Shown: in pieces, positions 4,950-64,000 of the stretch
Layout of the letters: every line of letters begins with the position of its first letter
Numbering within the stretch: position 1 is the first letter of the stretch
From: Psammoneis japonica
Lineage: Eukaryota
Length of the DNA: 64,000 nucleotides
NCBI GenBank assembly: GCA_008632985.1
Contig: QPGO01000002.1
Location: 248,001-312,000 of the forward strand
Reading direction: 5' to 3'
Notes under the pieces: generated by a model
Told to the model about the DNA's origin: nothing
The model's database searches: none
The model's input: only the letters and a program-made list of their open reading frames with translations
Program-made: the position numbers and the translations under genes

Positions 4950-7140
4950 CATGAGTAATGGGTGACAGAGTGTGAGTCGAGTTGTCACCCTGGCAACATG
5001 CGTTTGTGGTCGTCACATTGTCTGGTGGTGTGTTCGTTCTTTGTTTTGTGACTCGTCGTTCCTTTGACTTCTTTCGCTCTCATGGTGTCAGCTCTTACCC
5101 CTTGTTTTGCCTTGTCTTTTGATGTGTCAACAATGTTGGATAGAGGAGTGAAATTGAAGTCTTTCAAGTTGATGCAACACTCCTCTTTGTTGCATCTGGA
5201 TTTGGGGTGCCTGGAAACGACGCTCAACCAACCCGAGCGCGCTGAGACTCGGGCTCGTTCTGGATTGATGGATAAGATGCTCCTTCATGTGCTTTTCTCA
5301 CATCCTGCCAAAGGTTTCAACAGCGTGTGTGTCCGTTCCAAGGGATGCCAGACCGACCAAATCATTGCCTGCAGGATGTTCTTGTGCCGAGTTCTTTTTA
5401 AAGGCAGCACACGAGAGGTTCTTTTCGGTGTCGAACTGGTTGTTGGAAGGGAAGTGCAACATGCTTTTCGACAAATTTCATTTGTGCTCATGTCTGCTTT
5501 TGGTGAGTGCCTTCTGGAAGCTTTTCCAAGACTCGCCTGATTTCTGATTGCACTTGGGCGATCCGTTCTTGTTGGCTCTCCAAGAATGCTCAACCATTTG
5601 TCTTGTCTGCTTCATTTTGGATTCCCAGCCTTTTGAAAACAATTGTTTGGGAGCCTTGGGCGATCGCATGATTGTGGAATCATGTCATTTCAACAAGAAT
5701 GGCGAAATGTGCCTGGCAGCCTGTTCCATTGTCACGCTCAATGAAGACGGAAAGGTGGGGATCCGCACGCAGCAAATTTGATGGCCGCTGCTTCTGCAAA
5801 GTCAGCTTGGTTTTGACACTTGACAAAGATTCTCTCCCTCAGCAGTTGCATTTTACTCCTGTGATTTGTCGCTTTCACATGAACCCCGTTGCATGGGAGT
5901 TGACTGAATCCTGTTCAGCACTGTGCAACAAACGACAATGCATCGGCGCCATGGTGAGCATCAGCGGGGAGCGATGCATCGCGAGGTGCTTTGTGCAAGT
6001 GCCAAGGCTACGTAGAATTTAACATGGCACGCAGAAATTGCGTAGAAAAATTTGCTGGCCAGACTGAAAAGTGCAACGCTCCGTGGGAGTGCCACATCAC
6101 CAAATCAAACGCCAAAAAAAGATGCCCTGAGTAAAAACAACAGACACAACTCTTGCCATTGTTGCACCATTGCCACACCGGCACGAAAGTTGGAGTCAAA
6201 AGCACTGCCACACCAGCCATTCGGTGCTGCCACACCATGCGTTGTCAACACATTGTCAGGTTCATGGCGACCCGCAAAAGCACTGGCACACCTGCCATCA
6301 GCAGCCACACAAGCTGTGCAGCTCCGCTGGCTGGCACACCATGCAGTGCAGCGCCTCCCTCGTCAGCTTCGCAGCATGCGGCGTGGCAAAAGTGCTGGGA
6401 ACCTGCCACACCAGCCATCAGCCATGCGAGCTGCAGTGCCAGCATGCCATGCATTGTTGCCTTCACAAAACAAAGAAAGAGAGTCAACGCCAAAAAGGAA
6501 TCCCTGTCCACAGTGGTTGCAACAACAGCAGCTGCAGCGACAGCAGTTTTTGCCCCACAAGAGTCGCAAGTGAAAACAGCCACAGCAGCAGTTGTGGCAG
6601 CAGCTGCGCAGAGCAGCAGTCGCAGCCACACGCCCTTCTCGTCACCCAAGAGTCAGCACAGAGAGTGCGCGCTGGATGTGCTCACCACAGAACATGAGAT
6701 GGAGATTCAGAGACAACAAGCAATGAGCTCAGTGCGTGCACAACCCAAGCTCTGCCTCTGCAAGAAGCTGCTGAGAATGAGCTGGACAAAAGGCAAGAAA
6801 CACAGCAGTGCTGGAAGAGAGAAACAGCATCAAAGACAGCACACTCACTCACCAGAACTTGTTTCATCCTGTGGCTGATCTTCAATGGCAGGGAAAAATG
6901 CTCCAAACACACCAGCCATCTAAAAGGCACAAAAAACCAGAAACTTGGGAGGTGCCAACAAACAAAGACCAACGTGGGGTGCGCTCAGCACACTTCGCTT
7001 TGACGTGTGGCAGTGCTCCCACCAACACAGCATCATCCCAGTGACATTCAATTTATGAACGGAGCCAAGTCTCCACAACACTGCAGTGCTGTTCTCAGCG
7101 AGCGATGACTTGGACGACGCTTCCAACTGCCGTGTGTGCT
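4950..7140. other. TpA-depleted hypermutated block A (degenerate TE-like sequence)
   Basis: TA almost absent apart from a few sites and an island at 6009-6045; TG/CA in excess. Confidence 0.85.
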
Positions 7141-9229
7141 GTGTACCGTGCGCTTGTGTTGCCGCACCGACCAAGCGTCTGGCCGTGGGGAGTTTGGGGC
7201 GGTCGGGAAAATTCGAGAACCTGATGGACGACAGACGTGGTGCGGATTTGGTTCGGCACTCTGTGAAAGTTCTACGTGAGAGTTGCATTATAGCTCGAAT
7301 AATTCGACTAAATATTTTTGATTTTTGCTTGTCCGTCATCCGCGTTCTCCGTGCTTTTTGTGTGGGAAAAAAAAGCCGCCGACCATGATGAATGTACTGT
7401 TCCGAGGTCGTCAATGTTGACAACTGAGGAGGAATCGGGGTGTAATAGTCTCTGTTATTCCCAATAGAAGGACACTGTGTGGCGATTCCTCCTCAAAGTT
7501 TCGATTTGAGCGATGTTTTTTGCATTTCACTGACTCACCCACATTCGCGTGTTGTCGTTGCCGCTGAGTGCGAATCTACCCAAGACCTCACCAGCAGAGG
7601 TACATGCCACCGGTAACTCCTTTATTACCATGCGTGGTCAAAAGTAATTATTATTGGTGGTTGGGATGAATAACAAAGTTTTTCAAGTGCTTGAGATGCC
7701 GGAAGCTGTTGGAATGGAGATTTTTGACGGGTCGGGCTCATCCGACCAAACTAATATAAGAAGTTCTTTAAGTGATATGGTAACCATAAGCATTCCATTA
7801 TTGATGCAACACATACCTAAGCTAGCCATATAGGGCTCTAAAGCTGGTTTATCTAAGAAAACAGTGACAACTGCTGCAAGGAGAGGGTCCTCAAACGTTT
7901 GGTTTGAGTCACGGAACGCACTCTCTAGGTTTCGCTACGCCTACGATACAGCAGGGGAACCAACACCTTGCCAAAGCATTTGAACCTATCACATAAGCCA
8001 GTAAGACAATTTGAAGCACTATGATTTCTCAGTGGGGAGCTGTCTTAATGATGGTGTTGCCCCAACACTCGTTGCGCGCTTCGATTTCTTCAGATTGGGA
8101 CTGGGCTCGATGGAGAGCTAAATGCAACCTAATGTATGGCCAATTCTACAATTTATGCTTGAGCATTTCGATATAAATCTAATGAGTGTTAAAAGAGTAT
8201 GCTTTGGAGCTTATCTGGCCTTGACGATGGACGTCTCTGTCCTGGTGTGCTTTCCAGCCACCACGCAAACATCCGAGTCTGATCCACTTCTGCGAGATGA
8301 TGGTGCCCTTTTGATCGGTTGCTTTCTATTAAAGACCTGAAAGTCTCAAAGACACAATATCGAACTCGAAAATGACTGAGTCTCTTAGAACAACAACCGC
8401 TGATGTGAAACTACCGGCCCTCGAATGACTCGCGGTTCTGAGGTGCCAAAAAATGAGAGAAAAACACTCTCTTCGGCCAGCAGAACTCTTCTGATTCTTT
8501 TTCTTTATGAAACGAGAAGCTAGAAAGCTTCACCCTAACAATGAAGAAGTCGAAAACAAAGGATTTTGTGAGGAAAACAAAAGAAAATGTTATAAAGCTT
8601 GGCCTCGAGTGCTCACCTCACAACACATGTTCCGGCATCTGACTCATGATCGGAAGCATCAAAATGGATGCTCTCGCCGTTATTTCACGACGCTTCTCTA
8701 CAGAACAATTCCTAAAGATCAATATGGTCCAAATCCATTGAAGTATTGAACTTCGGGCAACTGGAACTTCTATCTAGATGCAACTTCGACTTGTGACAAG
8801 GGGGATTTTGCACGGGTCCTCCAGGTTTGCAAGCTGTGAACAAGATGTTTTTGACAGTTTTCCACCATAAAAGTTACATGTTTCAATGAAGGAAAGAAAA
8901 TATGGCAGTTCTATAATGTACCGTCGAGAATAAACTTACTGTTTGCCGCCAGAATCGTTGCGTATTCATCATGGTCGCCCACCAAAAACTCCTTCGGCTC
9001 GTTGCGCAAAAATTTCGGAGAGTGATGACGTCACGGGACGAGGTGATTTACACAGTGTTGTGGTACAAAATATACGCGTGACGTCAACATACTAGGTCTA
9101 CGGCTATAATGCACCTCTTTCACGGGGTGTCGGCGGAACCCATAAAACAAATCAAACACATCAAAACATCCAACATCCGCACACCATGAAATACGGTACC
9201 ATAGTGAAGAGGTTTGCTCTCCGCAGTTG

Positions 9230-10976: not shown

Positions 10977-10977
10977 T

Positions 10978-12035
10978 CTACTCCGCATCGCTGATAGAGC
11001 CATGGAGGAGCTCCAGATGGTAGCTTTTCTTCGTGAGCTCTGTGCCATCGCTTTTCCGCACAGTGTACGTGCCACGCCCATTCTTGCACACTATCTCTAC
11101 CACCTCGTCTTTTGCTTTTCCCTTCGTGATGCGATACTTGTCGCCAGCGTTGAACTCTTGCACATTGTTGCGGCTGCGGGAGCCACGGACAGCTGGCTTT
11201 GCTGCGGCAGTAGTGGTAGCGTTGTCATCAGCGCCAGTCGCTGTCATCAGAGTGACGCCTGTCTCAGAATGAGGTGCGGCTGCATCGCGTAGACGGTCTT
11301 CAAAAGAGACAGCGCGGTTGGTGCTTGAACGAGCCGTAGTGACAGGAACCAACGTCGCAACCGGGAGTGACAGGAGCTAACGACGCGACCGCCATGGGCG
11401 TTCTTGGCACAGCCGATGAAGCCTTCACCATGGGTGTTCCTCCTTGCATGGCCTCAATGAATAGCCTCCGTTCTGCCATTTCAAGCTCGTGTGCTTCCCT
11501 TCTACGCTCTTCTTCTTTATCACGTCGCTCTTCTTGTCGCTTTAATTCATCCTTTCGCATCTCATGTTCTTCCTGTTGCATGGTAGTGATTCGTTCAAGG
11601 GAAATCGATAAGTTGGCATTCGTTTCCGATAAGATGTCATTCGTTTCCAAGAGTTCGATGTTTTCCTTTACGGATTGTTTGAGTTTCTCCAGAGCTGTCC
11701 GGAGGGCATGCTCCACCTGCCGACGGGAAATTCCTTCATACTCTGGCGACGAATAGGCATCGTCAGAGTAGCCCTACAGCACAGCACCAAAAGGAGAACG
11801 AAATACAACACGTGAGACAAATATCGTTCCTCGACAATTTGAATGAACGCGCGATACTTACCTCCGCTATGGTTTCCGGAAGCAACCCAGGCGGAGTACT
11901 CACAACAGCAGTTTCATCCTCGAAACTGTTCGGCGATCGCAATCCCTCCGAGTCGCTCCCGTCGTTGTTCTTGTCGTTGGCTCCGCCAGTCACTACGGAG
12001 AGAATACCCTTGAGAACACCCTTGAAGAAGTTCAT
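10978..12035 (-). CDS. Coiled-coil protein with C-terminal KOW/SH3-like domain (family member 1); one intron 11861-11774 and a probable 1-bp frameshift at ~11363
   Basis: ATG at 12035. The 88-nt GTAAGT..TGTAG intron joins in frame to ORF 11300-11716. The C-terminus AGDKYRITKGKAKDEVVEIV..LE..HG....DAE is paralogous to the 26109 gene. The frameshift may be real or an assembly error. Confidence 0.7.
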
Positions 12036-13028
12036 CCTGCTAATGATGTCAATACAATGTCAAATGTTGTCAATGCTGTTGAGTTGTGACGGTGGCGATG
12101 GGATGCTTTTGATTGACGACTCGAGTTTTTGATGCATTCCGTAGAGCCTACCGGTACGTGACTTTATGTACCACAAAGTTGATTCTCCGTAGAATCAGCC
12201 ATGTTTCTACACGCCCAACGGATCTTTTTCGAATGCAGCACGTGCGCGCGTACGTGCGTCTTTCAAATTCCTGTCCCGCCAAAAACATCGCACGCGACGT
12301 CATCATCATTTCATCGGCCTGTCTACAGTGCAGTGTGACGTCTGTGGTGAATTGTTGTGACTTTGCCTTCTTTGCATTCACCACGAGAAGGCTTCACCCA
12401 TTTTGCATTGCTCCAACAAGTGAGCCAATCAGGTGCGCAATGGCTTGCCAGTGGCCACCACGGGCGGTGCTCCCCCCCAGCACACTCCAGCATTGCCACA
12501 AAACAGGAAGCAAGGGCACCCCCAGCACGGCTGTGGGCTCAGGGCAAATGTTTCCTCATCTTTGCAGGTTGTTTGCTGAGCACCTCTCAACAGCCAACCC
12601 CCAGCACATGGCACCTTCTTGATTTCATCAGCACCTCATGTGGCAGCAGCGGTCTGGTCTTTTGTTGCATCACAAGACACATCTGATGCACCCAAGGCAT
12701 CCCAAGCAAGAACACATGATCAAAGTGACCCACAGTGCCAGCAACCTGCTGAACAGATCCCAGGAAAGGGCCAGCATTGCAGTTGCTCCTGGGAGCAGCT
12801 TGTCAACCACAGCGGCCCTTTGCAAATCCCTCGCAGCGTCAAGCTTCTGATTTTCAAAGCAAACAAAGACAAGAGCCGCCCTTGGCAGCCAAGTGAGAGT
12901 CATTGGTGGCTGCTCCAAAAGGGGTGTTTGACAAGCTCCAAGCTGAAAAGAGTTGTTGGCTGCAACAACGCCAGCCAGCACTGCCAAAAAAGCAGGAGCC
13001 AGTGGTTCTCCAGTTCACAGTTGGCACC
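11931..13028. repeat. Inverted copy of 40405-41422 (gene 5' end, promoter module and adjacent hypermutated sequence)
   Basis: Reverse-complement homology over ~1.1 kb, including MNFxKG..VTGGAND..DGSDSEGLRSP and the upstream region. Confidence 0.9.
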
Positions 13029-14330
13029 TCCCTCTCATCGCATTCCTCGCACACAAAACAGCACACACCATGAGAATTAAGAATCAAAGCGAAACATCAG
13101 ACCAACTCCAATCCTTTCAACAGTGCCAATGCCATGTGCTGGTTTGAAGGCAATCAGCCAATTGCAAGATGGAAAAGAGAAATTTGTGTTGGCACCCCGA
13201 TTCGCTGCTCATCACCCCAGCTCTCTGTGGCGATCGAACCGCGCTGTGCTTTTGTTTCATTGTCTTGCTCATTTTCTTTGACACATTTGCTTCAAACACT
13301 TGCAGACAGAGGATTTTGATCATGTTCAGCAGCGAATGGATGTCTTCCCATGAAACACTGATCAAGTGTCTCAAAGCGCCTTTCATTTTGTGAAAAGAGA
13401 GTTGGTGTCTGCAGTGTGTCAGCAGTCACATGGCGAGCTTGGACGAGACAGATCAGGTCAGGGAGGAATGCAATGATGGGTCGTTTCTGTTTGGGATCCA
13501 TTTCTTGAGTGCTGTGCTGCTCAAGTGACTCCAACCTGTGATGGAGATTCTTCGGAACCCAGACATGGCGGGAAGCATGAGGCATTGGAAGCTTGGTTTG
13601 ATGCAATGGAGTCCGTTTCTGGCTGTGCTTGTGCCATTGCCGGTGACCAGGCATCGTGGAAAAACGCTCTGAGTTGTGGAGCACAGTGTGAGATTGTTCC
13701 AAATGTGGATCTGCTGCAACCACGTGGTGCTCATGTTTCCACAAATCGCAAGGGATGCGATCATTTGGCTGTGTGGCAGGAAAGGCACCTTTGCTCAACT
13801 CCAGAGGAAGAATGCGTTGCACTTCAAGGCAATCTCAGAACCTCACAGAGATGACAAGACGACTCAACTTTCTGATTTTTTTTTGCCCTGGAAACTTCGT
13901 GTGCGCTGCATGCATCATCGCCAAAAATTGGCAACATGACGATGGTGCATTGTCGCAACAACAGCAACAACAATGACGTGTCCTCCACTGTTTGGGCATT
14001 GCAGACATTTAGTTCATTAAGTTTGAGAATGTGTTCAGTCATGAAAGTCCCCGGGAGAAGCCTCCGTTTGAAAGCAAAACGTCGCCATCGTTTGATGCAT
14101 TTGAGTGTGGAACAATTGACAGTTTGCCCGGGGGACTTTCTTGATGCATGCATGTTCTTGAGAGCATTGTTGATGTGGTCATTGAGCACCAATTGCACAT
14201 CGCAAACGTGTCATCATCATCATCAGCGTTGAGCGGCAATTTGTCATGCAAATCACGAAAATGGCACGGACCGTCGTCTTCCGACATTGAGCTGCTGCGC
14301 GCAACTCCTGCGCATGCCTTGAGTGCAGTT

Positions 14331-14531
14331 GACAAGCGGCTCTGCTGTGCGGGAAGTCCCAAGCTCTCTGCTGGGCAAAATGGACAGTTCGAAGCTTTCA
14401 GGAAATGCCAGAGACGTGGCAGCCTGTGTCGACAATGAATTGCAGGCACCTCGAGACATGGGAATGACCCCAGCTGCCACTCTCCTCATGCCAGTCTTTG
14501 CCACACCAAAGCCACAAATCAAGGGTTGACA
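14331..14531 (+). repeat. ~200 bp non-coding module, hypermutated copy; inverted homologue of 46005-46203
   Basis: gggaagtc..aagctctctgctgggcaaaatggacag..tcaagggttgac is shared. TA sites of the 46 kb copy are TG/CA here (cctatat > cctgtgt). Confidence 0.85.
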
Positions 14532-16849
14532 CGTCACGAAAAAATGCAACACTGCATTGCTTTGTGGGCCTGCCAACAATTTCAAGTGGAACATTGTGTG
14601 TCGCCACAGGAGGGTGGACCACATTTTGGCAGTCTTCAGCCAATCAACAGAAGATGGTTTTGACTGCAACACATTGGGTGATGGTGCCTTGGTTGTGCAC
14701 CATTTTCCCTGGATCTCCATCAGAGTTGCTCTCTGCCAACTGCCAGCAGAGTGCAACTGTGAAGAGAGCTCTCTCTCTCAGCTGCCAGTGCTGCACTGTG
14801 CCACCTTAGATCTGCTCATGACATCAAAGCACACAACAGTGCATTGCAGCCCATTGACCCATGTGCGGAAGCAAATTGCACACAAACAAATGTTGCCATG
14901 TCATGGAATCCACTGGGGACAATGATCCACAGCACCAGATCCAGCTGTCTAAAACTGGCTGGGGTGTGCGATGTGGCAGTCATCAATGGGAACCCAGAAA
15001 TGCAAGTCTGAAGATCGGGTCTGTGGTGGGTAATTTTGCAATTAAAAACATCATGCAAGGGAACGAACAACAAACGAACGAACAAACAAACAATGTGTGT
15101 CATGTCCATCTGCCCTCCATCTTCAGCACCCTGTCTCCCCCTTCCTGGTCTGCTTTGATCCCCGTGACTTGCTTGTCAGCCAGTGCACTGGTGTCCTCTC
15201 GCTGCTTGGCTTGGAGTCCAGGCTCTGGAGAGAGCTGCCACTGGACCTGTCCTGTTCAAATCTAAGAGATGCAATTTGGGGTGCAACTTGGGGGTGCAAA
15301 AACAGGCGTCCTGAGACCAACACGCAATTTTCCTCGTGTGCACAGCAGTTTTTCATTTGAGGGTGATGTGCAGTGGGCTGAGCACCAGCAGCTGACAACC
15401 AGTGCACAGAGAGCACACCATGCCACTGCCACAATCATCAATGTGGGTGTGCACCCAAAGACAACAAATGATTGCTTGTCAGACAAAGCTTGACCATGGT
15501 GTCTTTGAGCACAATGAGAGCCATGACAGAGTCCTTTTTTTCTGTTGAGGACTTTTTGAAACAGCTTTGATTGGCTTGCAGCCTCTCTTGCAGTGGTGGT
15601 GCAACCCCTTTTCTGTTCTGCATCAGCTCATTGATGTTGATGAGCTGATTGAGAGGAAGAGCTGAGAAGAAATTGTGAGCCATGATGATGAGTTGTGTTT
15701 GCCTTCTTGTGGTCATGATGTGTTTTGGCTGCTGTCTTTGCTTTTAAGAAGAGCATCAGCAGCTTTGGCATTGCAGGGTGGGCTCTTTCTTGTTGTTTTG
15801 TTGGCTCCAGCCCTTGTGAAGCCACAGCATTGTTGTGTGAGACAGATTGGGTGACAGCTCTGGGACTCTGAGCAGCCGCAAAGCAAGGCATCACAGCTGG
15901 CAGAGCAACAAGGTTGTTTTCTGCATGTTTTCAGAGATTTTGACTTGGCCCTGTTGGTTTCTCACCACTGGGGCTGGACCAAGTGAACTGGAGGCAACCC
16001 AGCAGCACTGACAAAGTTCAGAATTGGAGCTTGCGTGTTGTCAACACTGTCAATTGTTGGCTTGCAACCTTGGGCAAAGTCTTGCAATGCACACTTTGGG
16101 CTGCAGCAGGTGCAGCAGTGCACAACAGAGTTGCTTGGAAGTGCAAGTGTGCTTCTGAAAAGCTGATGCAAGTGGGTGTGGAGGGGTGTTGTTGGTGGCT
16201 TTCCATGGCAACTTGCTTGTCAGTTGTCAGTGCTGTGGCAACTTTCTTTCTCCTCCTTTTTTTTTTGTCTGCAAGATGCAGATCACACTGCAGCCCACTC
16301 TCTGCCAAGCACTTGTTGATTGTGACACTTGTGTTGTCCAAGTTGCAACACTGGCACATTTTTTCACAGGGGAAAGCCATGCTTGTTTTGACAAATGTGG
16401 AGGTCACAGAGGCAGGTGGTTTTTCACAGGAGGGTGGCTTCAAATTAGTTTGTGAGCCCAAATTGTGCCCCAATTGCCGTGAGCATGATGGGTCTGATTC
16501 TTTCCACTGTTGTTGTAAAGGCTTGAGGTGTGTTTCAAAATGAAGTGCACACCAGCTTCAAGGTTGACCTTCACTCAGACTCCAAGGCATGCCAGAGAAG
16601 AAAAAGAGGGGTGAAATCAGACCAAGCAGCCAAACAAATTGAAGCTGAATCAGCTGCTTTTTGTCACTTTGCAGGCACTGCACATTGCCCCAATCAAATT
16701 GTGGGCCAAAAGAGAGCTGCTCAATCTTTCTCCTTGGGCAGTTTACAAGGGTGTCAGGTCACACACAGCATTCCACCATGGACAAGGAATCTGAGATCCC
16801 TCACCCAGCATGCCCCTGTTTCTGCAGTGGCCACCACCTCCCCCATGTG

Positions 16850-17770
16850 CCGCCCACTGTCTGACATCCAGCAATTGGCATCATCAGCCATCAAGCATGC
16901 TCCACAAGACATCCAGCACCCAGCATCCATGACACACCACCTGGCATCCAGAAACCTCCATCCACCAGCCACTGGCTGCTGTCTGCCAGCAATCGTCAAC
17001 CATTCTCCATCATTCATCCACCATCTGCCATCCAGTGTGATCTGCCCACCATCTGCCACACCCCACCATCCATGATCTGATGTCTGCAGCCCATGTCCCA
17101 CATCCATCATCTGACATCTTGCATGTCTGCCATCCATGACTTGCCACCTGCCATGTGACATCCACCACACACCATGATCTGCCACCCATCATCATCCAGC
17201 ATCCAGCATTTGCCATCCACCATCAAGCATCCATGATCCTGTGCCATCCACCACCCACCTTCCAGCATCCATCATTTGCCATCCACCACAAAGCATCAAC
17301 CAACAAGAGTTTGGCATGTGCCATCCACCGCGCACCCTCCAGCAGCGGCCATCCACCCTCCAGCAGCAGGAGCCAGTGGTCAGCATCCAGCACACACCGT
17401 TTGTGGAGCAGCACCCATCATCCAGAGACCAGCGTCCAACATCTGCCATCCACAACTCCATCCAACATCCAGCATCCGTCATCTGCCATCCAACATCCAC
17501 AAACCACAAACCACCACCCACCATCCAGCACCCAGCACATCTGCCATCCAGTGCCCAGCATCATCCAGCACATCCAGTGTCCATCATCCAGCACCCAGCA
17601 CCCACCAGTCTCTGCCATCCACCTTCCATCATCCAGCACTCACCACTCACCATCCAGCCCCCACCATCAGAAACCCACCATCCAGCCCCCACCATCAGAA
17701 ACCCACCATCCACCATCTGCCATCCTCCACTCTCCACCATCCAGCGCTTGCCATCTGCCACTCACCTCCA
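16850..17770. repeat. Degenerate ~7-bp period minisatellite (CCATCCA/CCAGCAT-like), strongly C/A strand-skewed
   Basis: Runs such as catccagcatccagcat and ccatccagcacccagca over ~900 bp. Confidence 0.8.
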
Positions 17771-20519: not shown

Positions 20520-20715
20520 CGGACATAGACTAAAAACCGGCCACGGTCATTGTCCAAGCATTCTGTCATGTCTGCTCTAGAGTCTGGTCTCGCAACCTGA
20601 CAAAGTTCGACCTCCATCGCTGGAAACTCATTTTGGAGAACAGTGCGACACATCCAGGTTTTTCAAAATGTTCGAGGATCCGTAAATGCCCGTCCTCACA
20701 TAGTAGATCCATCCT
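20520..20715 (-). mobile_element. Terminus of a TIR DNA transposon (AGGATGGATCTAC family)
   Basis: The reverse complement starts AGGATGGATCTAC and aligns with 58260-58445 (cagcgat..ggtcgaactttgtc..agaatgctt). The partner end was not found. Confidence 0.7.
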
Positions 20716-46203: not shown

Positions 46204-46339
46204 AATCTCGTCTCCACCAATGCTCAGCTTTTCAGCTGAACTTCTTGTGATAGCCTACAGTTGCTATTAATATGCTACGTAACAAATTATAAAGCCAAAC
46301 CATTACTCTCTAGCTTAGAGTACCATTATTATCTGTATA

Positions 46340-48890: not shown

Positions 48891-49307
48891 CCCTGTACCC
48901 GGTAGAAGAAGTGCTAGACCCTACGCAGTTGCACCCAGCGTTGCATTCTTTCCGTTTACCTCCACAGCACCTGCCGGCAGCAGTCATCGCTCGGCTGAGA
49001 CGCACGACGCACGTACAACCATTGTTTGTGCAGGGCGGGCGCGCGCGCGCGGACTGACTTCCGCTGCGGTCTTGCCGTCACAAGTCTACACGATCATGGT
49101 ACTGTTTCTACGCTGGTACTAAAAATGTCGCTCTATCTACAGACTCAAATCTGTGTTGCTTTCTTTTTGTGACGTGTGCCATTATTAACGACCCGATGCA
49201 TTGAACCAAAATTACTTATGCTCGCATGGGCCTGCTACCGCCCCAGCACGACTTCGGCAATAAAAAATGATTGCGTCATCCACATCAACGATTCAAAAAT
49301 TTGACGG

Positions 49308-53149: not shown

Positions 53150-53545
53150 CAAAGACTGTTAAACAAGAGTAGAATACCAAACATTTGAGACGATACGCCA
53201 ACGACATCTTCGTCGGCACCGCTCTTTTTGCTCGACTTGGAGTCTCCACTATACAATAAATACATGGTTGGAATGAGCATATATTGTTAGAAAACAGTCA
53301 TAACAACAACGGCGTGATGACGATAGGTAATTGTTTGTTCCATACTATATACACTTACCCTCCCATAAAGAGCGCCACACCTCCGACAATCATGACGACA
53401 TTGATATATTTCTTGAGCGGATATTTCTTTCCCATGAGAGCCCACATAATCATGACGGGTACAGGCTTGCAACTCTCGGCCAATCGTTGAATGGGATACA
53501 TGACATAACAGAGCGACCGTACCAAACAAAAGGTACTACCCATGG
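53150..53545 (-). pseudogene. Second UAA-family transporter fragment (paralogue of 46990-47385)
   Basis: [40 protein letters not shown] aligns with 46990-47385. Confidence 0.85.
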
Positions 53546-53991
53546 AGTGATGAGTCCCAAAATGGCAAACCGCGCCGGTGAAACGATGGTGGGCGTCCTG
53601 CGGCGTCATGGTGTACAGCGACGATGTCACAAACAAGAAGGATAACTCGTGCAACTTGCGTCCACCCGATGTGCAGTATCTATACCCCTTGACCCTGCGG
53701 CCACGACAAATCCAGGTACTTTTTGAAATCGTGTGCGCTCAAAGCGCACCAGTCCTTCTTGACAATGCGCATTCGATGCTCAATGCCAAATACATTGCCC
53801 GTTTATGATGCACTCCTGACAACTGATTGCTAGGGCCCTACTGGCTGACTCCAGTCTTGAAACATTGTCGAGATTGTCTGAGTCTTTCTCTATGACTGCA
53901 GTCGCTGTACCGGAGGGCAGAGGTGGGTGCCATAGACTTAGCAGCTGCAGGTGTGGGGTGTTGCTGCTGATTGGCCCCTCCAATTACAGAG

Positions 53992-55124: not shown

Positions 55125-56261
55125 ATGGACGAGTCCGACAAGGAGAGCAACGCATCGCAAGGACAATCTTCCTTGGAAAGGAAGAGAGAGCAGAGCCGCA
55201 AGAGTTCGACCAAGCATCGAGAGAAGAAGAAACGAGAGAAGAAAGAAGCCGAGGAGAAGAAGAAGGCGGAGGAGGAGGAGAAAAAGGCCAAGAGTCGCGA
55301 ATCTAGCCGTAGACACCGCGAGAAAAAGAAGCTGGAAGCGCTACAGAAAAAACAGCACGAAATGGACAGGTTGAAGAAGATTTTCTTAAGTCAGGACTCC
55401 CAGCAAGCCCACCCTCAGGAAGAGGCCCGTCATGAGTCGGGCGCTCTCTTCACGCAACCGACTCCCAACCGTTACCATCAAGGCAGTCCCGCCGCCATGA
55501 TGACTCCTCGACAAGCCCCTTCTCCCTTTGCAAGGACGTTCACTCCAGAAGTATTCAGTCAGATTGACGAGTCTTTCAAGAGCTCGAAACGGAACGATGA
55601 GAGGGCAACCCAGATTTTGGATCAGCATCAGCAACAGATGTATCAGCATCAGCAACAGATGTATCAGCATCAGCAACAGATGTATTCTTCGCGCCAAAAG
55701 TTTGAGGAACACAACCGAAAGCGCCAAGGTACCGAAGAACAGCATCGTGAGTTCCTGATGAACGCAAGCACTATACCAACTCCCAACAAGCGTTTCAAGT
55801 CGAGTCATCCGTCGTCTGAATTCACGTCGAACGAGTTCAATGCAACCTTACATTCGGCAAAGTCGGATGGTCCAGCCCCATTCAAGCCAAACGTGTCTCC
55901 CGTCTTCAATGCGAATCTTGATTCTACGAAGAAGAATATCAACTTTGGACAATATCACACTAGGAATCTTGATTCCCACCACAAGTTTCGCATGGATGAC
56001 TACGGTGTTGATACGGTCCAGAAGGCGAAGGAAAATGAACCGAATGAGAAGGCCGGCGTTGCCACTCTGGGTTCCAAGCATGTGGTTGCATTTGCGAAGG
56101 GTGATATTGTGTACTACACCAAGGATGGCGAGAAATATAAGGCGGAGATTCTCGATACTTACAAGGATGACAAGCTCGATCCGTATTACTTTGTTCGTGT
56201 CTTCAAGCCCACCGGGTCCGTCGACAAGGACACGGAATCCAAATACCTCTCCGCCTTTTAG
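55125..56261 (+). CDS. 378-aa protein: two bZIP-basic-like segments, (QHQQQMY)x3, C-terminal Tudor-like domain
   Basis: Intact ORF with RKREQSRKSSTKHREKKK and KAKSRESSRRHREKKK. 21-bp repeat x3 at 55621-55684. The C-terminal ~270 aa are paralogous to the 41330 gene. Confidence 0.8.
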   Translation: MDESDKESNASQGQSSLERKREQSRKSSTKHREKKKREKKEAEEKKKAEEEEKKAKSRESSRRHREKKKLEALQKKQHEMDRLKKIFLSQDSQQAHPQEEARHESGALFTQPTPNRYHQGSPAAMMTPRQAPSPFARTFTPEVFSQIDESFKSSKRNDERATQILDQHQQQMYQHQQQMYQHQQQMYSSRQKFEEHNRKRQGTEEQHREFLMNASTIPTPNKRFKSSHPSSEFTSNEFNATLHSAKSDGPAPFKPNVSPVFNANLDSTKKNINFGQYHTRNLDSHHKFRMDDYGVDTVQKAKENEPNEKAGVATLGSKHVVAFAKGDIVYYTKDGEKYKAEILDTYKDDKLDPYYFVRVFKPTGSVDKDTESKYLSAF

Positions 56262-58260
56262 ACATGAGACAGAATTGAAACACTGTCAACCGCAGACGGA
56301 TACGAAACGGAGTAGCGCGTAGAATGCATTGATTACAATAAGTTTGTACTAGGCAGAGTTTTCATAATGGACCTTTACTAGTTATCTGGCTCGTTTTGTT
56401 CGTAGCATAGTATACCGGTACCGTTTTTTCGTGGAGCGTCGCCGGATGATAAGGGTTTTGCGTATTCAGCTGCTCTTATCTTTCGTCTTGGACATCTTGA
56501 TCACTCCCACGCTCGTCTTGTGGACACTTTTATCGATAAGCCCAGATAAATAATTCTTACATCTTTCATAGCTCGTTCTTGAATGATAATCTCGTTCCCT
56601 GATTCGGGAATGAGATGATCGGTAAGATTCAAAAACTGAATATCGCTAGCAGCATCCAAGATCCTTCACCTTGGAGTCGCGTATTCGAAGAGTCACTATA
56701 TCCCTTTCGCTAACCGAAGCAAAGTCGGCGTGCGATTTGGCTTTGGATTTACACAGTGCTCGTGAACACGCACCAAACCACAGCGAGGAGCAGTTTCTAA
56801 AGAAATCATGAGCATAGCACAATGGTGAGAGACAGCTATACGATCAGCTTCCCTTTGGCAAGTTCCACTTGCCATCACGAAATCCCGATCCGATTTGAGA
56901 AGCGGCAAACGGAATCTGTTGAGCATTTGTGTCCAAGAGACGTTTCAAATTGACAAAAAGACCCTGTGCGTTTTCCGGCCTCAAATATCAAACGCTCGAA
57001 CCTTGGGGTCCGATGCTGGTCTTGAACATGAGGCTAAAAGGCTCTCCAGAAAAAGGTTTTGCCTGCGTCATAGAGCCGAGTGTGTCACACATTCCCATAA
57101 TCAAGAACTGGACGACGCGATGCTTTTTCCATCTCCCCTCAAGCGCGCGTAGTGTACACTACAAAGAATCCTTGACGTTATGGAACAGCGGGTTGACAAA
57201 GATGTCATACTTTGTCCGAGCTACTGCAAAGCTGTCGATTCGATCAGAACTCACCGCGACGATCACCCATAGACAGCGGAGCCCAGATTGCAACTCTAAT
57301 CTTTCTATCCTGCCTAATGGCAGACGCTCTCTGGTTCCAGATTGGAGTTTCTGGTCTTGAAAACTCACAGTGCTGGCGCAACAGCATCGTCTCTCGCAAC
57401 ACCCCATTGGTCTTTGCTGGCCTCCAGTACGAACACGTACAGTCGTTTGCTCAAAATCGTGGTTGCAACCATAGAAAGATAGAAATATAGGATTGAATAG
57501 CCACATCATATTCAAAGTAGATATTGGACCCATTTTTTGGAACACACCTTTGTTGACAAGATTGCCTGGTGCCTGTTTCTGTTTCGAAAGCGCCTCTAAT
57601 CCGATCACAAATGCCTTACGCTCTGAAAAGAGATGCCAACCATGCATTTTCCAGTCATTCTGCGGTTTTGGTCCCTTTTTTTCGGTACACAATGACTCAA
57701 TCGCAGGGCTTCATTGTACGCAATTCTAAGAGCCGCGCCGTAACAACTTCTGACGCCGTTGATTGCAATAGGAAACCTGCCCATTTCTTTTTCATTCCAT
57801 ACGAGATCTACCGTTTTGCTTACAGGAATAGCCGACTGGGCAAGTAAAGTTCAGAAAGCTGCTCCAGTGGAGACAAGAACAAAACGGCGTTGAAGCAACA
57901 GGCTTCGCACACGGCGTGTCAAAGTTCTGGATGCTCTACTCAGCAGCGTATTGCTTACAATACCATTCAGTGTCAATGCAACTACAAAGAATGAAACGAA
58001 GCGATACATCCAAGCGGAGAATGTGCTTCAGCGACAGGCTACCGGCGGTACAAGTATTTCTGCTTCTCTTGAAAGCCTTCGTCGCGTTCTAGAGGTACGT
58101 ACTATCATCCTCCTCCTCTTTTTTTTTTACTTCAAAAATTGAAATTTTGATCACAACGGATACCGCCTTAATCCAATGCTTAAAATCTTCATATATAATT
58201 TTAGGCTTGCCCGTTAACTTGCATTATCGATATATCCATTATTAATTTAATCAACATTAA

Positions 58261-58771
58261 GGATGGATCTACGTGCTGCGGTCAGTTTTTTGGGAGCTCG
58301 TAATTTTTATAAAAATAACCCGGATGCATCGTAGTAAATGCGCGCGCGTTCGCAAAAAAAATTTCAGCGATCGGTCGAACTTTGTCCGTTCGCCAGACAC
58401 CCTAGAATGCTTAAACAACAGGTGTGACCATGCGCGCGTTTTACCTTAACGACTATGGATATGTCTGTAGCCAGTCAAATGCCACTTGTCGGCATTTCCC
58501 GGAAAGTCACCGCCAATCTCCCACAAGAAGCCCGATTTTAGCGAAAACCAGCGGTTTTTTCAACCTGACAACAGGGCACAGGTCGACAAGTGGCATTTGA
58601 AGCGCCAAATGTGCAGCTCACAGCCCTCTCACAGCCCCCCATGAGGGTTTGACATGAGGGTTTGACGAACGCACAAGTGTTCGGGGGTGTTCCGAGGCAG
58701 GTCAAAACAACACGGTGAAGTGCGGGAAATGCGAGCCATTTTAAATTAGACTGCAGCACGTAGATCCATCC
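58261..58771. mobile_element. Non-autonomous TIR element (~510 bp) inserted at TTAA (Kolobok-like GG..CC ends; a TA-TSD reading is equally possible)
   Basis: TIRs GGATGGATCTACGTGCTGC.GTC / GAC.GCAGCACGTAGATCCATCC. Absent from the paralogous site at 44468 (ttttaattgaagg). Flanks are ttaa and tcaa. Confidence 0.9.
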
Positions 58772-58869
58772 TCAACTGAAGGTCTTGCCGGAACCAAGCG
58801 AAGTTGACGATGAACACAATGACACACTGCGCTGCACCGCAAACACTTCCACCGGCACTTCAGCAGAGA

Positions 58870-59259
58870 GACGGGCTTCAGTCCTGGGCGGGACTCTGTG
58901 TGACATTGGGCCAGCAGAATTCTGCGTGCAAGCTCCGCAGTGCGAGAATTTGGTCAATGGATGCATTTGTCTTCAACATCAAATGAACGGCCAAGTTTGT
59001 GGTGCAATTGTGCCTCTTGCCACTCGACGTTTTTGCAAGTGCGCCTGCCCTGCACGATTCTCAAGACATTGTAGAATCGCACTGCAACAAAAAATGTCAA
59101 AAGTTGTTGGATGGATCGCTCAATGAGTGTGCCGTAAAATGACACAAAACATCGAAAAAATCACGCAGAAATCTGCGCGCGCTACATGCGATGTAATTCA
59201 AAAAACTGTCTGTGTCACAGTTCAGCAGTGCGAGGTCCCACCTAGACCTGGAGCTCGTC
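58870..59259. mobile_element. Non-autonomous TIR element (390 bp) with 4-bp TSD GAGA
   Basis: Ends GACGGGCTTCAGTCCTGGGCGGGAC / GTCCCACCTAGACCTGGAGCTCGTC. The empty site gtagagagtag is at 44578. Confidence 0.85.
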
Positions 59260-59457
59260 GAGAGCAGAGGCACAACACTTGACCTCGATGACATGCCACA
59301 GAGGCAACAAACTTTCAACAGCAAATCGCAGCACACAGTCTGACATCGCCTCAGGTCATTGCAGCAGCAAAACGGTTTTCTCCCCGGTCCGGTTGGCGCA
59401 GCGCTCACTGCATTTTCTTCACTTTAGCGCGGAACTGCGGCTTTGCATTGAAGAAAT

Positions 59458-60366
59458 GTGGATTTGAACGCGTCTCTTCTCACAGCCATTGGACGTGGCA
59501 CTGCAGACGATGTTCGCATCATTCTTCGAGGTGGAGCAAACCCCAGCGCAGCTGTGACTCTCCGCCCACCCGCGGACAAAGACAATGATCCGCTTGTTGT
59601 CAAGCAGCCTTTTGTGTCATCATTTGTGACAATGCAGCTGATCCAGAAGCCAAACTTCAGCTCTTGCTGGATGCTGGAGCAAGTCCGACGGATGAGCTGG
59701 AAGGTTGCACACTGCTGGGTTCTGCATGTCATGAAGGTCGTCCATCCCTGGTGCAAATTCTTTTGTCTCATCATGGAGTGGATGCAAACGACCAAAGCTC
59801 TCCTCATGGGACACCATTGCATGAAGCTGCACTCCATGAAAATGCTGAAATTTGTCTGCTGTTGTTGCGGAATTGCGCTGATGCAAATTCAAAGGATCCC
59901 AACGGTTTGTCGCTGCTTCATGCTGCAACACACCGTGGAGCCGTAGTTGTGGCGCGAGTGCTCCTGGCAAACAGAGCTTGCATCAATGACGCCACAAATG
60001 AATGTTCTCTAACGCCTTTGCACATTGCTGGTGTTGCAGACATGGCAAGATTGCTCGTGGAACACGGAGCTGATTTGAGCGTCACTTGCATCCGAGGACC
60101 AACGGCATTGCAGTGCGCACTTGGGAGGGGCAAACATGCGGTGGTCTCTGTCTTGATGGAGGCGCATGGACAGAAACTGTTGAAGTGTGATCATGTTCAT
60201 CCGATGTCATGGGCCCATGTCTTGGCCAAAGTGGGGGAGAGGAGCACGGACATGTCTGGAGTGGGCATCAATTGCCCCTTGCTTCGCGAAGAACCGGAGG
60301 ATCTGTTTGGCCACAAGAATGCCGGCAGAAAAAGAAGCAACCCGATCGTTCTGTTCCAGAAGGGTC
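59458..60366 (+). pseudogene. Hypermutated, frameshifted copy of the ankyrin gene
   Basis: Aligns to 44778-45683. ATG>GTG, Tyr>Cys/His changes and indels. Confidence 0.92.
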
Positions 60367-60499
60367 AAACAACACAGCATGGCAGCATTTGTTGTGGCTG
60401 ACACTCTCTCTACACAGACATGCCATGGGGAGTGTGCTGCCCAAAGTTTGCAACTGCAAAACAACATCCATGGTCTGCATGTCGAATTTGTGTCACTGC

Positions 60500-62700
60500 A
60501 AGGGTGTCCCAATCAGCGCAACAGATGAATTGCTGAGAACTGTGCTGGATGAATTCTCCAGTGGTGGGTTGTCTGTCACCCGACAAGTGCCCTCTTCTTG
60601 AACTTTCATGTCCAAGCTCAAGTCAATGTTGAATGGCATTGTGGCCCCGGCACTGCAACAAGTTCCCCTTGAGTCTGTTTTCATCATCAACCAATTCAAG
60701 AGCAACCCGCTGCAGGAGCTCTCTCCTGGCATCCCTGTGTGTGACTTTTCCCTCCAACTGCAGGACCTTTTTGACGATCCCCTTTTTGCCGATCTTTCAA
60801 ATCTCGATGTTCCTCCTTGTTCACATTGGTCTCAGGTGCTCTCCAGTGAACCCATGTCAGACAAGAGTGGCAATTGGAAACTTTGTGATGATGCCAAAAT
60901 GAAGAATGGAGAAACTCACAGCACCTGTTTTCGTGGCAATGACGTTCCCCGCTGTCCGCAGATCCTTTCATGTTTTGGGTTTGTGCTGCACCAACAAAAC
61001 TGGGAAAGGACAGGTTGCACCTCATTTGATGGAGCCATTCGTTTCCTCTGCAACTCTCATCAAGGCATCTGCCTGTCATTGTTTTGAAGCATGGCATCCT
61101 CTTGGATTCATTCCGAAACACACAGGTTGCAAAACAAAGAACCCCGTTTTTGGGTTGAATGTCAGCAGAAATTGTCGCCGCATTTTGTCTGTCCTTCTTG
61201 CATCTGTTGCCTCCTGTCTGCCGCATCTGACTTGGCAACCAGCATTGTTGCAAGCGCATTGTTGCCGCAAAAAATCCTGCCACATCTGTCATGCCTGTCA
61301 CACCTCCCGGACATGCAGCAATGAACCGCTGCATTGCGGCAGGCATTTTTCTCAGGAAGTGATGGAGCGTTTGACTGCTGCAGCTCTTGGACCACCACCT
61401 GGTTCAATGGACAGTCCGTGGCATCTGTTTGTTGAACCACAAATGGCCACAGTGATGTCCAAGGCCAAAGCTGAGTCAATCCATTCCAAGGGACACAGTG
61501 CAGTTTTCCGGTGCACGAACATTTGTTCCTCCATGCTTCACAAGGTGTTCGGCCAACACACGGTTGACAACTCAACATTTCCTCTTCGAACAGGAGACAA
61601 TCATCAGGGCATGTTTGGGTTTGCGTCCCCTGACCCAATGCACATGTTCCAAGGTGGCACACCAGTCCCTCAGATGCTCTCCGCCATTGTCAATGATTTG
61701 CCCGACTCCGCCAAAGGCCACTTGAATGATTTGGCAAACCGCACGTTTGGATCTCAGTGGTGCAGACCCAGTCAGAGAACAATGTTTCCACCAGTTGTCT
61801 TGCAAAATGGCTTTTGCACCTTGTGTGGTTTGACCTGTGGCCAAAAGATGGGGAAGCTGTTTGCGACAGTGCCAGCGGGTCAGACTGCAGAGGGATGGGG
61901 CATGCTCCATCTTTGTTGCCATCCAGATTTTGACAAGACAAAGAAAAACAAGCCTCAATGGATGCAAACCAGAAATGTCAACCTGGATCAACACACAACT
62001 CTGTGTCCCCAGCAACAATGATTCCTCTGTTTCCAACATTTTCAGATGCTGTGCAGACCGTCGCCAGCCACTGCACTCACAGGCAACTTCTCATGACCAG
62101 CCGTTGGTCTGCTCAGAAATTGAAAAGGAGTTGCCTCTTACATTCCGCCAAAGCCTAAAGAGCCTCGACCCAGAGCTGGCCAGTCATTCAGCGGACTGTG
62201 ATGATGTGGATCATCTGTTGCTTTTGCTCAACAAATTGTTGTTGCTCCACTCCTTTCACAGCTGTGGTTCTTCCCTGCACTCACAAACCAATTGCGTCAA
62301 TGATGTTGAATGTTGCCTTGTTCTTTTGATGTTGGTGAAGGCACACATGGATGGAAAACATCAAAAGTTCCACAATTTGCTTCACTTGACAGCTGCTCTT
62401 TGTTGACTGGGCACATTTTCTGGATGGACCTGCCAAGCCTCACAAGGTGAAGAAGAGTTCACCAGTCAGCTTGCAACCCAACTGCATGAGCAAAGTCTGT
62501 TGGAGAGAGCAAACAACTTGATTGTCCGCCCCCTTGCCCCTGATGATTTGCCACCCAGCACAACATTGCACCACAACCTGGGGCACACTGTGTCCACAGT
62601 TGACCGTGTTGACAAAACATTTAGAGGAAAGCACCAAGGCAACCAACTTGTCTCTTTCCGGCTCCATGTCTGATCAAGAGCTCTCGGATGACAAGATGTT
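60500..62700 (+). mobile_element. Degenerate Plavaka/CACTA-like transposase
   Basis: Motifs across frames: PVCDFSLQLQDLFDDP, TNKT..EPF, AWHPLGFIP, DPMHMFQGG, RPSQRTMFPPV..NGFCTL, KFHNLLHL. These match Plavaka-type transposases once Cys/His are read back as Tyr. Confidence 0.65.
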
Positions 62701-64000
62701 GTTTGTCCTTGACATGAAGGATGAGTGGCCAGAAATCTTTTTAAATGGTGACATGCACTCAGGAGGCAGGGGTGCACATGAAGTGAGACAAATCGTCAAA
62801 ACAAAGTTTTTTTCCTCACATGATTTTCCTGAATTCCATCAACGTTCTTTGGCAGAATGCTGCAAGGTTGGAACATGACCGCACACTCTCTGGGTCAGTT
62901 GTGTGATCGCATTTAGCAACAAATTCCTCTGGACCATGCCATTTGTTGACTGCGAAGAACTTGATCCTGTGTTTGAATCCATGTTTCTTTGTGGCAGCAG
63001 GGCACAACTCCTTGCATCGCATTGGCAAGAAGACTGTGCCGTTGTCATGCAGGAAAATAAAGTCCCATTTCAAACCATGCTTCTTTAGACAGTGCAGGTG
63101 GCAAGAGAGCTGGTCCATGCACACCATGGTCACTGACATTTTGTTGTTGCGCATCAGTCTCCGTGCAGCTTCACACATCTTCCATGCCTCCTCCAACTCA
63201 ATTCCACCGGAATCAACAACAAGATGGCTTTCCAACGAGGTGCCAACAGAATCCGTTTTCATCATCATCATTCAAAGTGGCGCTGGCAGCATTCTCAGCA
63301 GGACAATTCCCCAGGTGGGCACCTGATTGGATGTGCAAAGTGCCTCTTGCACTTCCCAGCTGGACTGCTTTCCGCGTTCTTTCTGGCGTGCCCATTTCCC
63401 TTTTGTTTCTTTCCGTCTGTTGTCAACTGACAAGCTGTGTCCTTTTCTTGTTCTGCAGAGTTTGGGTTGCGCAGCACTCTGTCTTGCTCCTCCAAAAAAC
63501 AAACAAACCAAGATGGACAATCCTGGGCTTTTGCTGATGTTCTGCCCACCTTGGATGGGAGGAACAGTGAACCTTGCCAAGGGCACCACTGCATTGTGCC
63601 TCTTGCACCAGGCGCGCACAATGCACTTGAACAGCTCACCTCTTGGTTGAGACAGAGCAAGGAGAACTCTGTCCCGGGATGGCAAGGAGACAGCAATTGA
63701 CACAGACCAAGCTGGCAGCGGTGCTCCGTTGTGCTCCCTGCAAACCAACCCCTTGCACTCTGCAACGTGTTGGAGACAAACAGCTCCGTTGCAGCAACTG
63801 CAAAACAAAATCCAAAGCCACGCAATGCACCCAAGCATTGTTGTTTGAGTCTTGTCCTCCTTCATGATCTTGGTGCACCTTCCGTCACTGCGATCAGATG
63901 TTGCACGCATTTCTGCCAAAGACAGAATTTTTTCTGTTGCCTCAGCCATTTCCTCTTGGTTGCTGAGTGGGTGGAGGTTGATTGCATCCAAGCATTCCTG

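Follow-up and report, generated by a model that had tools for sequence, protein, structure and literature searches.

Kilobase-scale blocks of TpA and CpG loss in a 64-kb stretch of DNA suggest position-restricted hypermutation of a resident locus

In the repeat-induced point mutation (RIP) of fungi, C is changed to T at CpA, which produces TpA-rich, AT-rich DNA; the process needs a duplication and hits both of its copies. The deaminases of the TadA/ADAT family act on tRNA, where their natural substrate is U33-A34, the target A being preceded by U/T. Here we describe a stretch of 64,000 bases (contig QPGO01000002.1, positions 248,001 to 312,000; hereafter the window) in which five blocks have lost nearly all TpA and much of their CpG, probably through a hypermutation that follows the locus and whose chemistry is the opposite of RIP.

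The closest described case is that of the alga Bigelowiella natans. When lines of B. natans were kept for mutation accumulation, two integrated viral regions received 231 of the 302 new mutations, and 230 of the 231 were changes of A>G or T>C, each of them at TpA; the rate was ~6e-7 per site per generation, and 124 clusters were counted in the ~95-Mb genome (Mettrop et al., bioRxiv 10.64898/2026.01.13.699255, 2026). The main text of this preprint proposes an ADAT2-like deaminase as the enzyme, one B. natans protein having ADAT2 motifs, and cites only amphioxus for natural DNA adenine deamination by the TadA/ADAT family. It was the only report of TpA-specific hypermutation found in our literature search. 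As far as its main text goes, the signature of the window belongs to the kind first described there, in 2026. Both the change of TpA to TpG/CpA and its restriction to the kilobase scale are found in the window, as are a TpA-depleted, CpA+TpG-enriched footprint in which most predicted proteins are unannotated and, roughly, an equal contrast in rate to the remaining genome.

The window contains no N, and our composition, segmentation, open reading frame (ORF) and self-comparison results cover these 64 kb. Blocks were called with a two-state hidden Markov model (HMM) on P(A given T), which assigned 28,317 bp, 44% of the window, to five depleted blocks of 0.9-11.6 kb. They are listed here with observed/expected ratios (o/e) of TA and CG; blocks 1 to 4 rest on the HMM and 100-bp edge counts, block 5 on the HMM.

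4959-7271: block 1, 2.3 kb, TA o/e 0.09, CG o/e 0.62
12255-20513: block 2, 8.3 kb, TA o/e 0.04, CG o/e 0.23
29376-40960: block 3, 11.6 kb, TA o/e 0.04, CG o/e 0.20
47970-48894: block 4, 0.9 kb, TA o/e 0.03, CG o/e 0.68
58765-63999: block 5, at least 5.2 kb, continuing past the window end, TA o/e 0.05, CG o/e 0.49

A first-pass annotation of the same DNA had described five TA-poor, kilobase-scale blocks making up about 45% of the window, and the HMM recovered them at near-identical coordinates. Its start for block 3 (~29010) has to be moved, as 29010-29376 is merely a partly depleted shoulder. In the blocks together, TA occurs 83 times (o/e 0.05), against 1495 times (o/e 0.61) in the 35,650 bp of normal DNA. 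The corresponding values are 0.32 and 1.01 for CG, 1.77 and 1.16 for TG, 1.78 and 1.17 for CA, and 49.4% and 47.5% for G+C. Strong depletion is seen for TpA and CpG only: AT has an o/e of 0.84 inside and 0.93 outside the blocks, and AA is not depleted in the window. The two strands are about equally affected in the blocks (TG 3040, CA 3235), and in block 2 CpG is almost nil between 15.5 and 19.5 kb. Counted over 500 bp at a time, TpA o/e is 0-0.1 over five stretches and 0.3-1.0 in the rest of the window. The distribution of TA o/e in 200-bp bins is, within the window, bimodal rather than unimodal, one mode being a spike at 0-0.1 and the other a broad hump at 0.3-0.9. TA-free runs of at least 400 bp number 27, the longest being 1728 bp; in 100 first-order Markov simulations such runs numbered 0.07 on average (maximum 1), and the longest TA-free run averaged 308 bp (maximum 574).

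The depleted blocks are a real feature of the window. Contig joins or contaminant reads, against which the first-pass annotation had asked for the edges to be checked, do not account for them, there being no N in the window and paralogous homology that runs across block edges. Among the contigs of a public run (Logan; these are fragmentary, and summed word depth does not equal copy number), one matches 40164-40520, inside block 3, with 0 mismatches. One contig of this run appears to cross the 40962 edge, and differences at 40864 and at 41010-41125 share the depth value 41.9; the run may be the assembly's own data.

The strongest evidence for the nature of the blocks comes from duplicated segments, one copy of which lies inside a block. 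Self-comparison of the window gave a pair of ankyrin-repeat paralogues, 14 kb apart and 92% identical over 1173 aligned bases, together with the DNA that adjoins them.

44577-45751, + strand: unmutated ankyrin-repeat paralogue, the reference for direction, with ORF 44772-45680
59257-60435: hypermutated ankyrin paralogue inside block 5, with ORF 59589-60398
55443-58220: normal-composition copy of 41655-44395, adjoining block 5

In this pair, 31 TA of the normal copy face a pyrimidine-purine dinucleotide, which in the depleted copy is TA in 4 cases, TG in 10 and CA in 17. The change from TA to CA/TG was thus found at 27 of 31 sites, and the reverse (TG or CA in the normal copy facing TA in the depleted one) at none. 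A similar asymmetry, less complete, holds for CG: of 66 in the normal copy 44 are kept, 9 are TG and 13 are CA (22 of 66 lost), with 6 changes in the reverse direction. Over a wider alignment of the ankyrin copies, 36 of 52 TA have become CA/TG, 6 are kept and 10 are otherwise changed or gapped. The 27 TA changes, 22 CG changes and 6 reverse CG changes make up 55 of the 99 differences of the pair, which by subtraction leaves a divergence of ~3.8%. CG to TG/CA changes in the depleted copy therefore exceed background (22 of 66, against 6 in reverse and ~3.8% for other divergence), as expected for decay of 5-methylcytosine (5mC); they appear to run at roughly ten times the other divergence, and to be raised in the putatively silenced copy alone. 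The collinear adjoining segments, 41655-44395 and 55443-58220 (2.7 kb), are normal in both copies, with a divergence of 8.2% and differences at 23 of 148 CpG, summed over both lineages. A shorter pair from block 2 (14340-14531, facing normal DNA at 46201-46005) adds 4 sites with TA in the normal copy and TG/CA in the block.

Because these paired alignments are directional, the blocks are best read as derived states, reached by TA to TG/CA and, more slowly, by CG to TG/CA change. The view of the first-pass annotation that they reflect hypermutation and not a native composition is thereby upheld (TA 27 against 0 in reverse, CG 22 against 6), and the mutations, whose type it had not named, are A:T to G:C transitions that fall on TpA, opposite to those of RIP. 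Every block has TA down at the floor (o/e 0.03-0.09), and CpG spans 0.20 to 0.68. Such a pattern fits a TpA process that is fast and a CpG process that is slower and can serve as a clock, on which blocks 2 and 3 would be the oldest.

As only one of the two ankyrin paralogues is hit, the other keeping both TA and CG, the process follows the locus, not the sequence, and is not RIP-like. Damage to one copy rules out targeting by homology, whether RIP-like or by simple RNA guidance, and favours targeting by position. Two duplicates in the window are normal in both copies, namely 41655-44395/55443-58220 (2.7 kb) and 1-1072/20878-21956 (97% identical). The first-pass annotation had proposed that the mutagen follows a chromatin domain, and this idea is plausible. 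Decay of CpG confined to a locus is what methylated, silenced DNA would show, and it is this decay alone that points to CG methylation and heterochromatin in the blocks. No methylome of B. natans turned up in our literature search.

The edges of the blocks are mostly abrupt. At six of nine (4957, 7272, 20513, 40962, 47966 and 48895) a single 100-bp bin is enough for TA counts to switch between 0-1 and 4-7. The transition at 12253/12325 takes ~100 bp, the edge at 29370 has a partly depleted shoulder of ~400 bp (about 28870-29370), and the left edge of block 5 lies somewhere in 58540-58765. The earlier description of sharp transitions, within roughly 100-300 bp, agrees with these 100-bp counts, most edges being at most 100 bp wide. 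CpG counts switch at the same edges; at 40962 they read 0,1,0,1,0,0,0,3 and then 2,16,5,5,14,10 per 100 bp. CpG decay thus co-occurs with TpA loss, as had been claimed, in that it shares the block edges and is raised only in the depleted ankyrin copy (22 of 66 lost). At the right end of block 1 (6973-7272), CpG is back to normal (5, 9 and 9 per 100 bp) and TA is still almost absent. TA and CpG depletion are therefore not perfectly co-extensive at that edge, CpG recovering ~300 bp earlier. A CpG-rich promoter was considered as a general boundary and dropped, since it is seen at some edges and absent at others.

Two of the edges are related to each other by an inverted duplication.

11944-13012: left arm of the inverted duplication, from normal DNA into block 2 (left edge)
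41419-40419: right arm, from normal DNA into block 3 (right edge)

The arms are 92% identical in the normal flank and 83% in the depleted part, where CA/TG pairs are concordant in 85 cases and discordant in 5. The start of depletion differs between the arms by ~90 bp, copy A having TG where copy B keeps TA. Since one arm is depleted ~90 bp further out, mutation must have continued after the duplication. Since most CA/TG outcomes are shared, at least one edge was inherited through duplication of already mutated DNA, so that sharp edges need not all be chromatin boundaries, and the edges as a whole are a mixture of in-place borders and inherited junctions. We also considered the 29.5-kb unit 11944-41419 as a single element bounded by terminal inverted repeats. 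This was unsupported, as its centre and outer arm ends are unmutated and rearranged gene fragments lie inside.

At the left edge of block 5 we found a miniature inverted-repeat transposable element (MITE).

58261-58771: MITE, 511 bp long, its inverted terminal repeats (19 bp) perfect, at the left edge of block 5

The element is inserted at a TTAA: its left flank carries TTAA, its right flank carries the duplicate as TCAA, and the paralogous empty site in copy 1 is a single TTAA. To the left of the MITE the DNA is TA-rich; to the right it is depleted from the first informative site. Inside the element, TA density is normal in the left half, 58539-58742 is TA-free (203 bp), and the right end has three TAs, two of them in contexts that resist the process. 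In the paralogous copy the two flanks of the MITE adjoin each other, so that insertion does not account for the mutated side; the domain of block 5 begins at or inside the MITE. Summed word depth over the MITE in the public run is very high, from 1099 to 39173. An 11-mer at its tips, GGATGGATCTA, occurs four times in the window, at 47953-47963 (+), 20704-20714 (-), 58261 (+) and 58771 (-), where by our own estimate ~0.03 occurrences are expected, and its orientation is always that of an element terminus. The copy at 47953 lies directly at the left edge of block 4 and the copy at 20704 lies ~190 bp outside the right edge of block 2, and of the four occurrences three are at or near an edge; the MITE or its terminal motif is thus at or near three of the nine block edges. 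GGATGGATCTA may mark a family of elements that share just their tips. Terminal repeats and target-site duplications were not found at the edges of block 4, nor at the other edges examined besides that of the MITE. Block 4 has a summed word depth of ~490-550 in the public run, against 90-210 on its flanks, a weak hint of repetition. A search of public metagenomes with the MITE terminus gave 29 matches, all single chance matches without similarity beyond the pattern, and a search of viral contigs gave 0.

Which TAs have survived in the blocks depends on the flanking bases. Survival, taken as the density in blocks relative to that in normal DNA, was calculated for each NTAN class.

TTAA: survival 0.51
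CTAA/TTAG: survival 0.27
GTAA/TTAC: survival 0.10
CTAC: survival 0.07
CTAG: survival 0.07
ATAA: survival 0.026
GTAC: survival 0.011
ATAG: survival 0.008
ATAC: survival 0
ATAT: survival 0

Fisher tests gave p = 1.5e-11 for TTAA and p = 7.6e-6 for ATAC. A 5' T or a 3' A accompanies 64 of the 83 surviving TAs in blocks, against 590 of 1490 TAs in normal DNA (p = 2e-11). By our own arithmetic, an additive per-strand model fits all ten NTAN values; the rate would then be set by the second base upstream of the A (A>G>C>T) or, to the same effect, by the base that follows it (T>C>G>A). At sites where A is followed by A on one strand only, the other strand was the edited one in 9 of 12 cases (hand count), and such strand-resolved outcomes lean towards the +1 (base after A) rather than the -2 rule, a preference that is only suggestive. 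Survival of CpG also varies with context, from 0.69 (GCGC) down to 0.20 (ACGA), CpG flanked by A/T being lost most.

A possible glimpse of the process at work is given by 56240-57250, in normal-composition DNA. In comparison with the paralogue 42428-43424, 13 of 64 TpA carry T>C, and 0 of 64 carry A>G (binomial p = 2.4e-4, post hoc and with no outgroup); away from TpA the counts are 12 T>C and 10 A>G. This one-strand cluster looks like an early, partial, strand-coordinated episode. Runs of CA versus TG within the blocks show clustering in blocks 1 and 2 (z = -2.6 and -3.5) and none in blocks 3, 4 and 5 (z = -0.85, -0.27 and +0.22); since normal segments reach z = -1.9, this result is not decisive. 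In the ankyrin pair, strand runs number 11, against ~13.6 expected (hand count). We saw no clear nucleosome-scale periodicity of surviving CpG, the weak peaks at 162-180 bp in block 2 being unconvincing.

With respect to gene content, Pfam scans were made of 136 ORFs of at least 120 aa from the whole window and of 150 of the 158 block ORFs of 70-119 aa. Their finds outside the blocks were SNF2, Gpr1/Fun34, ankyrin, a UAA transporter (at two sites) and, weakly, DUF5755. Within the blocks, the ankyrin paralogue was the only find among ORFs of at least 120 aa, and the 150 shorter ORFs gave only a below-threshold, chance-level match to VitD-bind_III. The statement of the first-pass annotation that remnants of transposable elements (TEs) lie inside the blocks is not demonstrated, as the block ORFs gave no TE or viral Pfam domain; the MITE and its terminal motif do sit at or near three edges. 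Its companion statement, that all intact genes lie outside, stands for Pfam-recognisable pieces; block 5, however, holds the hypermutated paralogue of a resident ankyrin gene. On the question of foreign DNA as the target, no viral or TE Pfam domain and no homologues were found, and one target is the resident ankyrin paralogue; hypermutation itself erases protein similarity.

The 314-aa ORF 39590-40531 of block 3 had 0 matches among 1.84 billion representative proteins, and a homology search with the 372-aa ORF 60903-62018 of block 5 gave no match. The latter has no Tyr at all, and in the block copy of the ankyrin gene 3 of 3 aligned Tyr are replaced by Cys or His; Tyr is lost because TAY codons are lost. 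With Tyr codons and TAA/TAG stops gone, gene finders will call long spurious ORFs in such blocks and homology searches will fail. The ankyrin ORF matched generic ankyrin proteins and nothing near-identical in the public collection, the best of 416 matches being at most 41% identical. Scans for tRNAs and for Rfam families found nothing, and there is no deaminase gene in the window.

Several further features of the window were noted. The 781-aa ORF 25902-28244 (+) has a sub-threshold match to DUF5755, and partial paralogous fragments of it are found at 10981-11930 (-) and 41435-41648 (+), adjoining the outer edges of blocks 2 and 3 in a patchwork of rearranged gene pieces. This ORF gave no match in the homology search and its atlas scores were all at most 0.80; neither it nor the 671-aa ORF has relatives in IMG/VR. 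The nearest atlas cluster of the SNF2 piece has few labelled members, from Basidiomycota, and is not usable for taxonomy. Fragments of a UAA-family nucleotide-sugar transporter at 46343-47388 and 53153-53738 are 88% identical over 391 aligned bases, and their different order relative to the ankyrin copies points to a probable rearrangement after duplication. The SNF2-gene region is part of a segmental duplication (1-1072 and 20878-21956, 97%; 1070-1402 and 22721-23067, 83%), normal in both copies. In block 2, 17180-17771 consists of degenerate C-rich tandem repeats of 28-38 bp, with up to 41% C and a His/Pro/Ser-rich low-complexity translation in one frame. Tandem repeats also occur in normal DNA, a 105-bp repeat at 24636-24980 (3.3 copies, 93% matches) and a perfect 21-bp repeat at 55621-55685 (3.1 copies).

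We consider it probable that in the blocks resident nuclear DNA was hypermutated, in a locus-restricted and context-specific way, by two superimposed processes, of which we infer the enzyme, methylation and chromatin steps. The fast process would change TpA to TpG/CpA, an A:T to G:C change of the A on either strand, nearly to exhaustion. The slower one would change CpG to TpG/CpA within the same boundaries, and as the two offset each other, G+C would remain steady at ~49%. In the fast step a deaminase of TadA/ADAT2 type may convert adenine in DNA to inosine, and the slow step may be deamination of 5mC in blocks that would be CG-methylated and silenced. The domain may be set by the chromatin state around repeats or foreign DNA, some of the present edges being junctions copied or made by rearrangement. 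Every Tyr codon (TAY) would be turned into His or Cys, the TAA and TAG stops would vanish, and TATA-type and AATAAA-type signals would presumably be destroyed; it follows from the loss of codons, stops and signals that block DNA would be permanently inactivated.

One may speculate further, and here we are tentative, that this is an eraser of TpA which is aimed by position, at a CG-methylated silent domain seeded at or beside transposons, and not by foreignness or homology, so that it also destroys ordinary host genes that lie inside the domain. According to this speculation, a TadA-like DNA adenine deaminase would read T-A-pyrimidine, spare T-TA-A and work in processive one-strand bursts.

A number of points weigh against a hypermutation of resident DNA by two such processes. 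The direction of change is derived from the asymmetry of paralogues, without an outgroup. The mostly shared outcomes in the two arms of the inverted duplication indicate that its transition was copied after most of the mutation, the edge not having been set independently. No TE, viral or reverse-transcriptase Pfam domain was found in the scanned block ORFs, and the two block ORFs searched, of 314 and 372 aa, have no homologues. The tetranucleotide rule takes normal DNA as a proxy for the ancestral composition of the blocks, some of the surviving TAs may be new mutations, and strand outcomes separate the +1 from the -2 rule weakly. Loss of CpG could be a second activity of the same deaminase instead of 5mC decay, and the enzyme, methylation and chromatin parts are all read from the sequence.

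The alternative that we take most seriously, though still only as a possibility, is that the sharp edges are structural junctions, at which DNA that was mutated as a unit, as an inserted element or elsewhere, has come to lie next to unmutated DNA by insertion, duplication or ectopic recombination. Segmental duplications abound in the window, and the transition is present in both arms of the inverted duplication 11944-13012/41419-40419, with 85 concordant and 5 discordant outcomes; moreover the left edge of block 4 bears a copy of GGATGGATCTA, another is found ~190 bp beyond the right edge of block 2, and block 5 has the MITE at its edge. The DNA on either side of that MITE is, however, contiguous in the paralogous copy, the ~90-bp difference between the arms indicates that mutation continued in place, and terminal repeats or target-site duplications were not found at other edges. 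Editing at the RNA level before integration, by which retro-copies or DNA derived from viruses or double-stranded RNA would have been hyper-edited by an ADAR-like or ADAT-like enzyme, seems unlikely to us. The one-strand cluster of 13 T>C at TpA with 0 A>G would suit it, and the UA preference resembles that of ADAR, as the discussion of the preprint has it (bioRxiv 10.64898/2026.01.13.699255). Yet in the blocks both strands are about equally changed (TG 3040, CA 3235) and removal is ~95% complete, a collinear resident paralogue was mutated in place together with its upstream DNA, and the scanned block ORFs contain no reverse-transcriptase or other TE domain. In B. natans, moreover, the mutations reported in the main text of the preprint arise de novo in integrated DNA (bioRxiv 10.64898/2026.01.13.699255).

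A RIP-like defence triggered by duplication, through recognition of homology, would at first sight fit a window in which several blocks and flanks are duplicated and in which both block 4 and the first part of block 5 have elevated word depth (a weak hint). We hold it to be very unlikely, since one ankyrin copy alone is mutated, two duplicate pairs are normal in both copies, and the chemistry is opposite, TpA being destroyed and the product not AT-rich. We think it just as improbable that thymine is what is modified, by a TET/JBP-type oxidation of the T in TpA to 5-hydroxymethyluracil or 5-formyluracil, which would mispair with G and give T to C. A sequence cannot tell a change of T on one strand from a change of A on the other, and TpA and CpG are both palindromic pyrimidine-purine steps that one system acting on pyrimidine C5 could conceivably mark; nothing in the window bears on such a reading, and for TA specificity the TadA/ADAT family is a precedent at hand, from its known tRNA substrate and from the main text of the preprint. 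We regard it as hardly credible that foreign DNA, contamination or an assembly artefact accounts for the blocks, with a composition intrinsically poor in TA and CG. The block ORFs indeed lack homologues, but the paralogues show the depleted state to be derived, homology crosses the edges, there is no N, and contigs of the public run reproduce block sequence, one of them appearing to span an edge.

If hypermutation of resident DNA by position is the correct reading, A:T to G:C rewriting at one dinucleotide in chosen domains would be a natural counterpart to RIP and APOBEC with the opposite chemistry, and the enzyme would be a possible natural DNA adenine editor. The paired mutated and unmutated gene copies would fix the direction and the relative rates of change, the flanking-base rule would be a constraint that any candidate enzyme must reproduce, and CpG decay locked to the same borders would link the process to methylation. 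Location, and not sequence, would decide the target. If in addition the DNA is not from B. natans, this defence would be more widespread than one reported species.

Among known systems, RIP is likewise a defence-like, context-specific transition hypermutation that inactivates kilobase stretches and leaves sharp compositional islands. It differs in chemistry, TpA being nearly absent in the blocks with CpA enriched 1.78-fold and G+C at 49.4%, and in its relation to duplication, as the window has unmutated beside mutated duplicates. ADAR hyper-editing of double-stranded RNA derived from repeats shares the A to G change, the 5' U preference and clustered one-strand events; it acts, however, on RNA and would not remove ~95% of one dinucleotide on both strands, and the footprint seen here is not confined to retro-copied sequence, a resident collinear paralogue and its flank having been mutated in place. 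Methylation-driven decay of CpG resembles the slower change, in that CG becomes TG/CA only in the depleted copy, but here it is coupled to a much faster TpA process within the same borders. TadA, ADAT2-ADAT3 and the base editors derived from them share a target A that follows T/U, and the native UAC loop would agree with the weak preference seen here for A followed by a pyrimidine; by way of difference, there is no deaminase gene in the window. The B. natans process is the nearest relative, with differences as far as the main text of the preprint goes. The preprint ties that process to inserts of nucleocytoplasmic large DNA viruses (NCLDV) and virophages, whereas in the window no viral or TE domain was found and a resident ankyrin paralogue was hit; and 44% of the window is depleted, against 124 clusters in ~95 Mb. 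CpG decay, a flanking-base rule, a one-strand burst and the anatomy of edges were not found in its main text, supplements aside. The co-located CpG decay, the flanking-base rule, the edge anatomy and the dependence on position therefore appear to be additions to the B. natans report.

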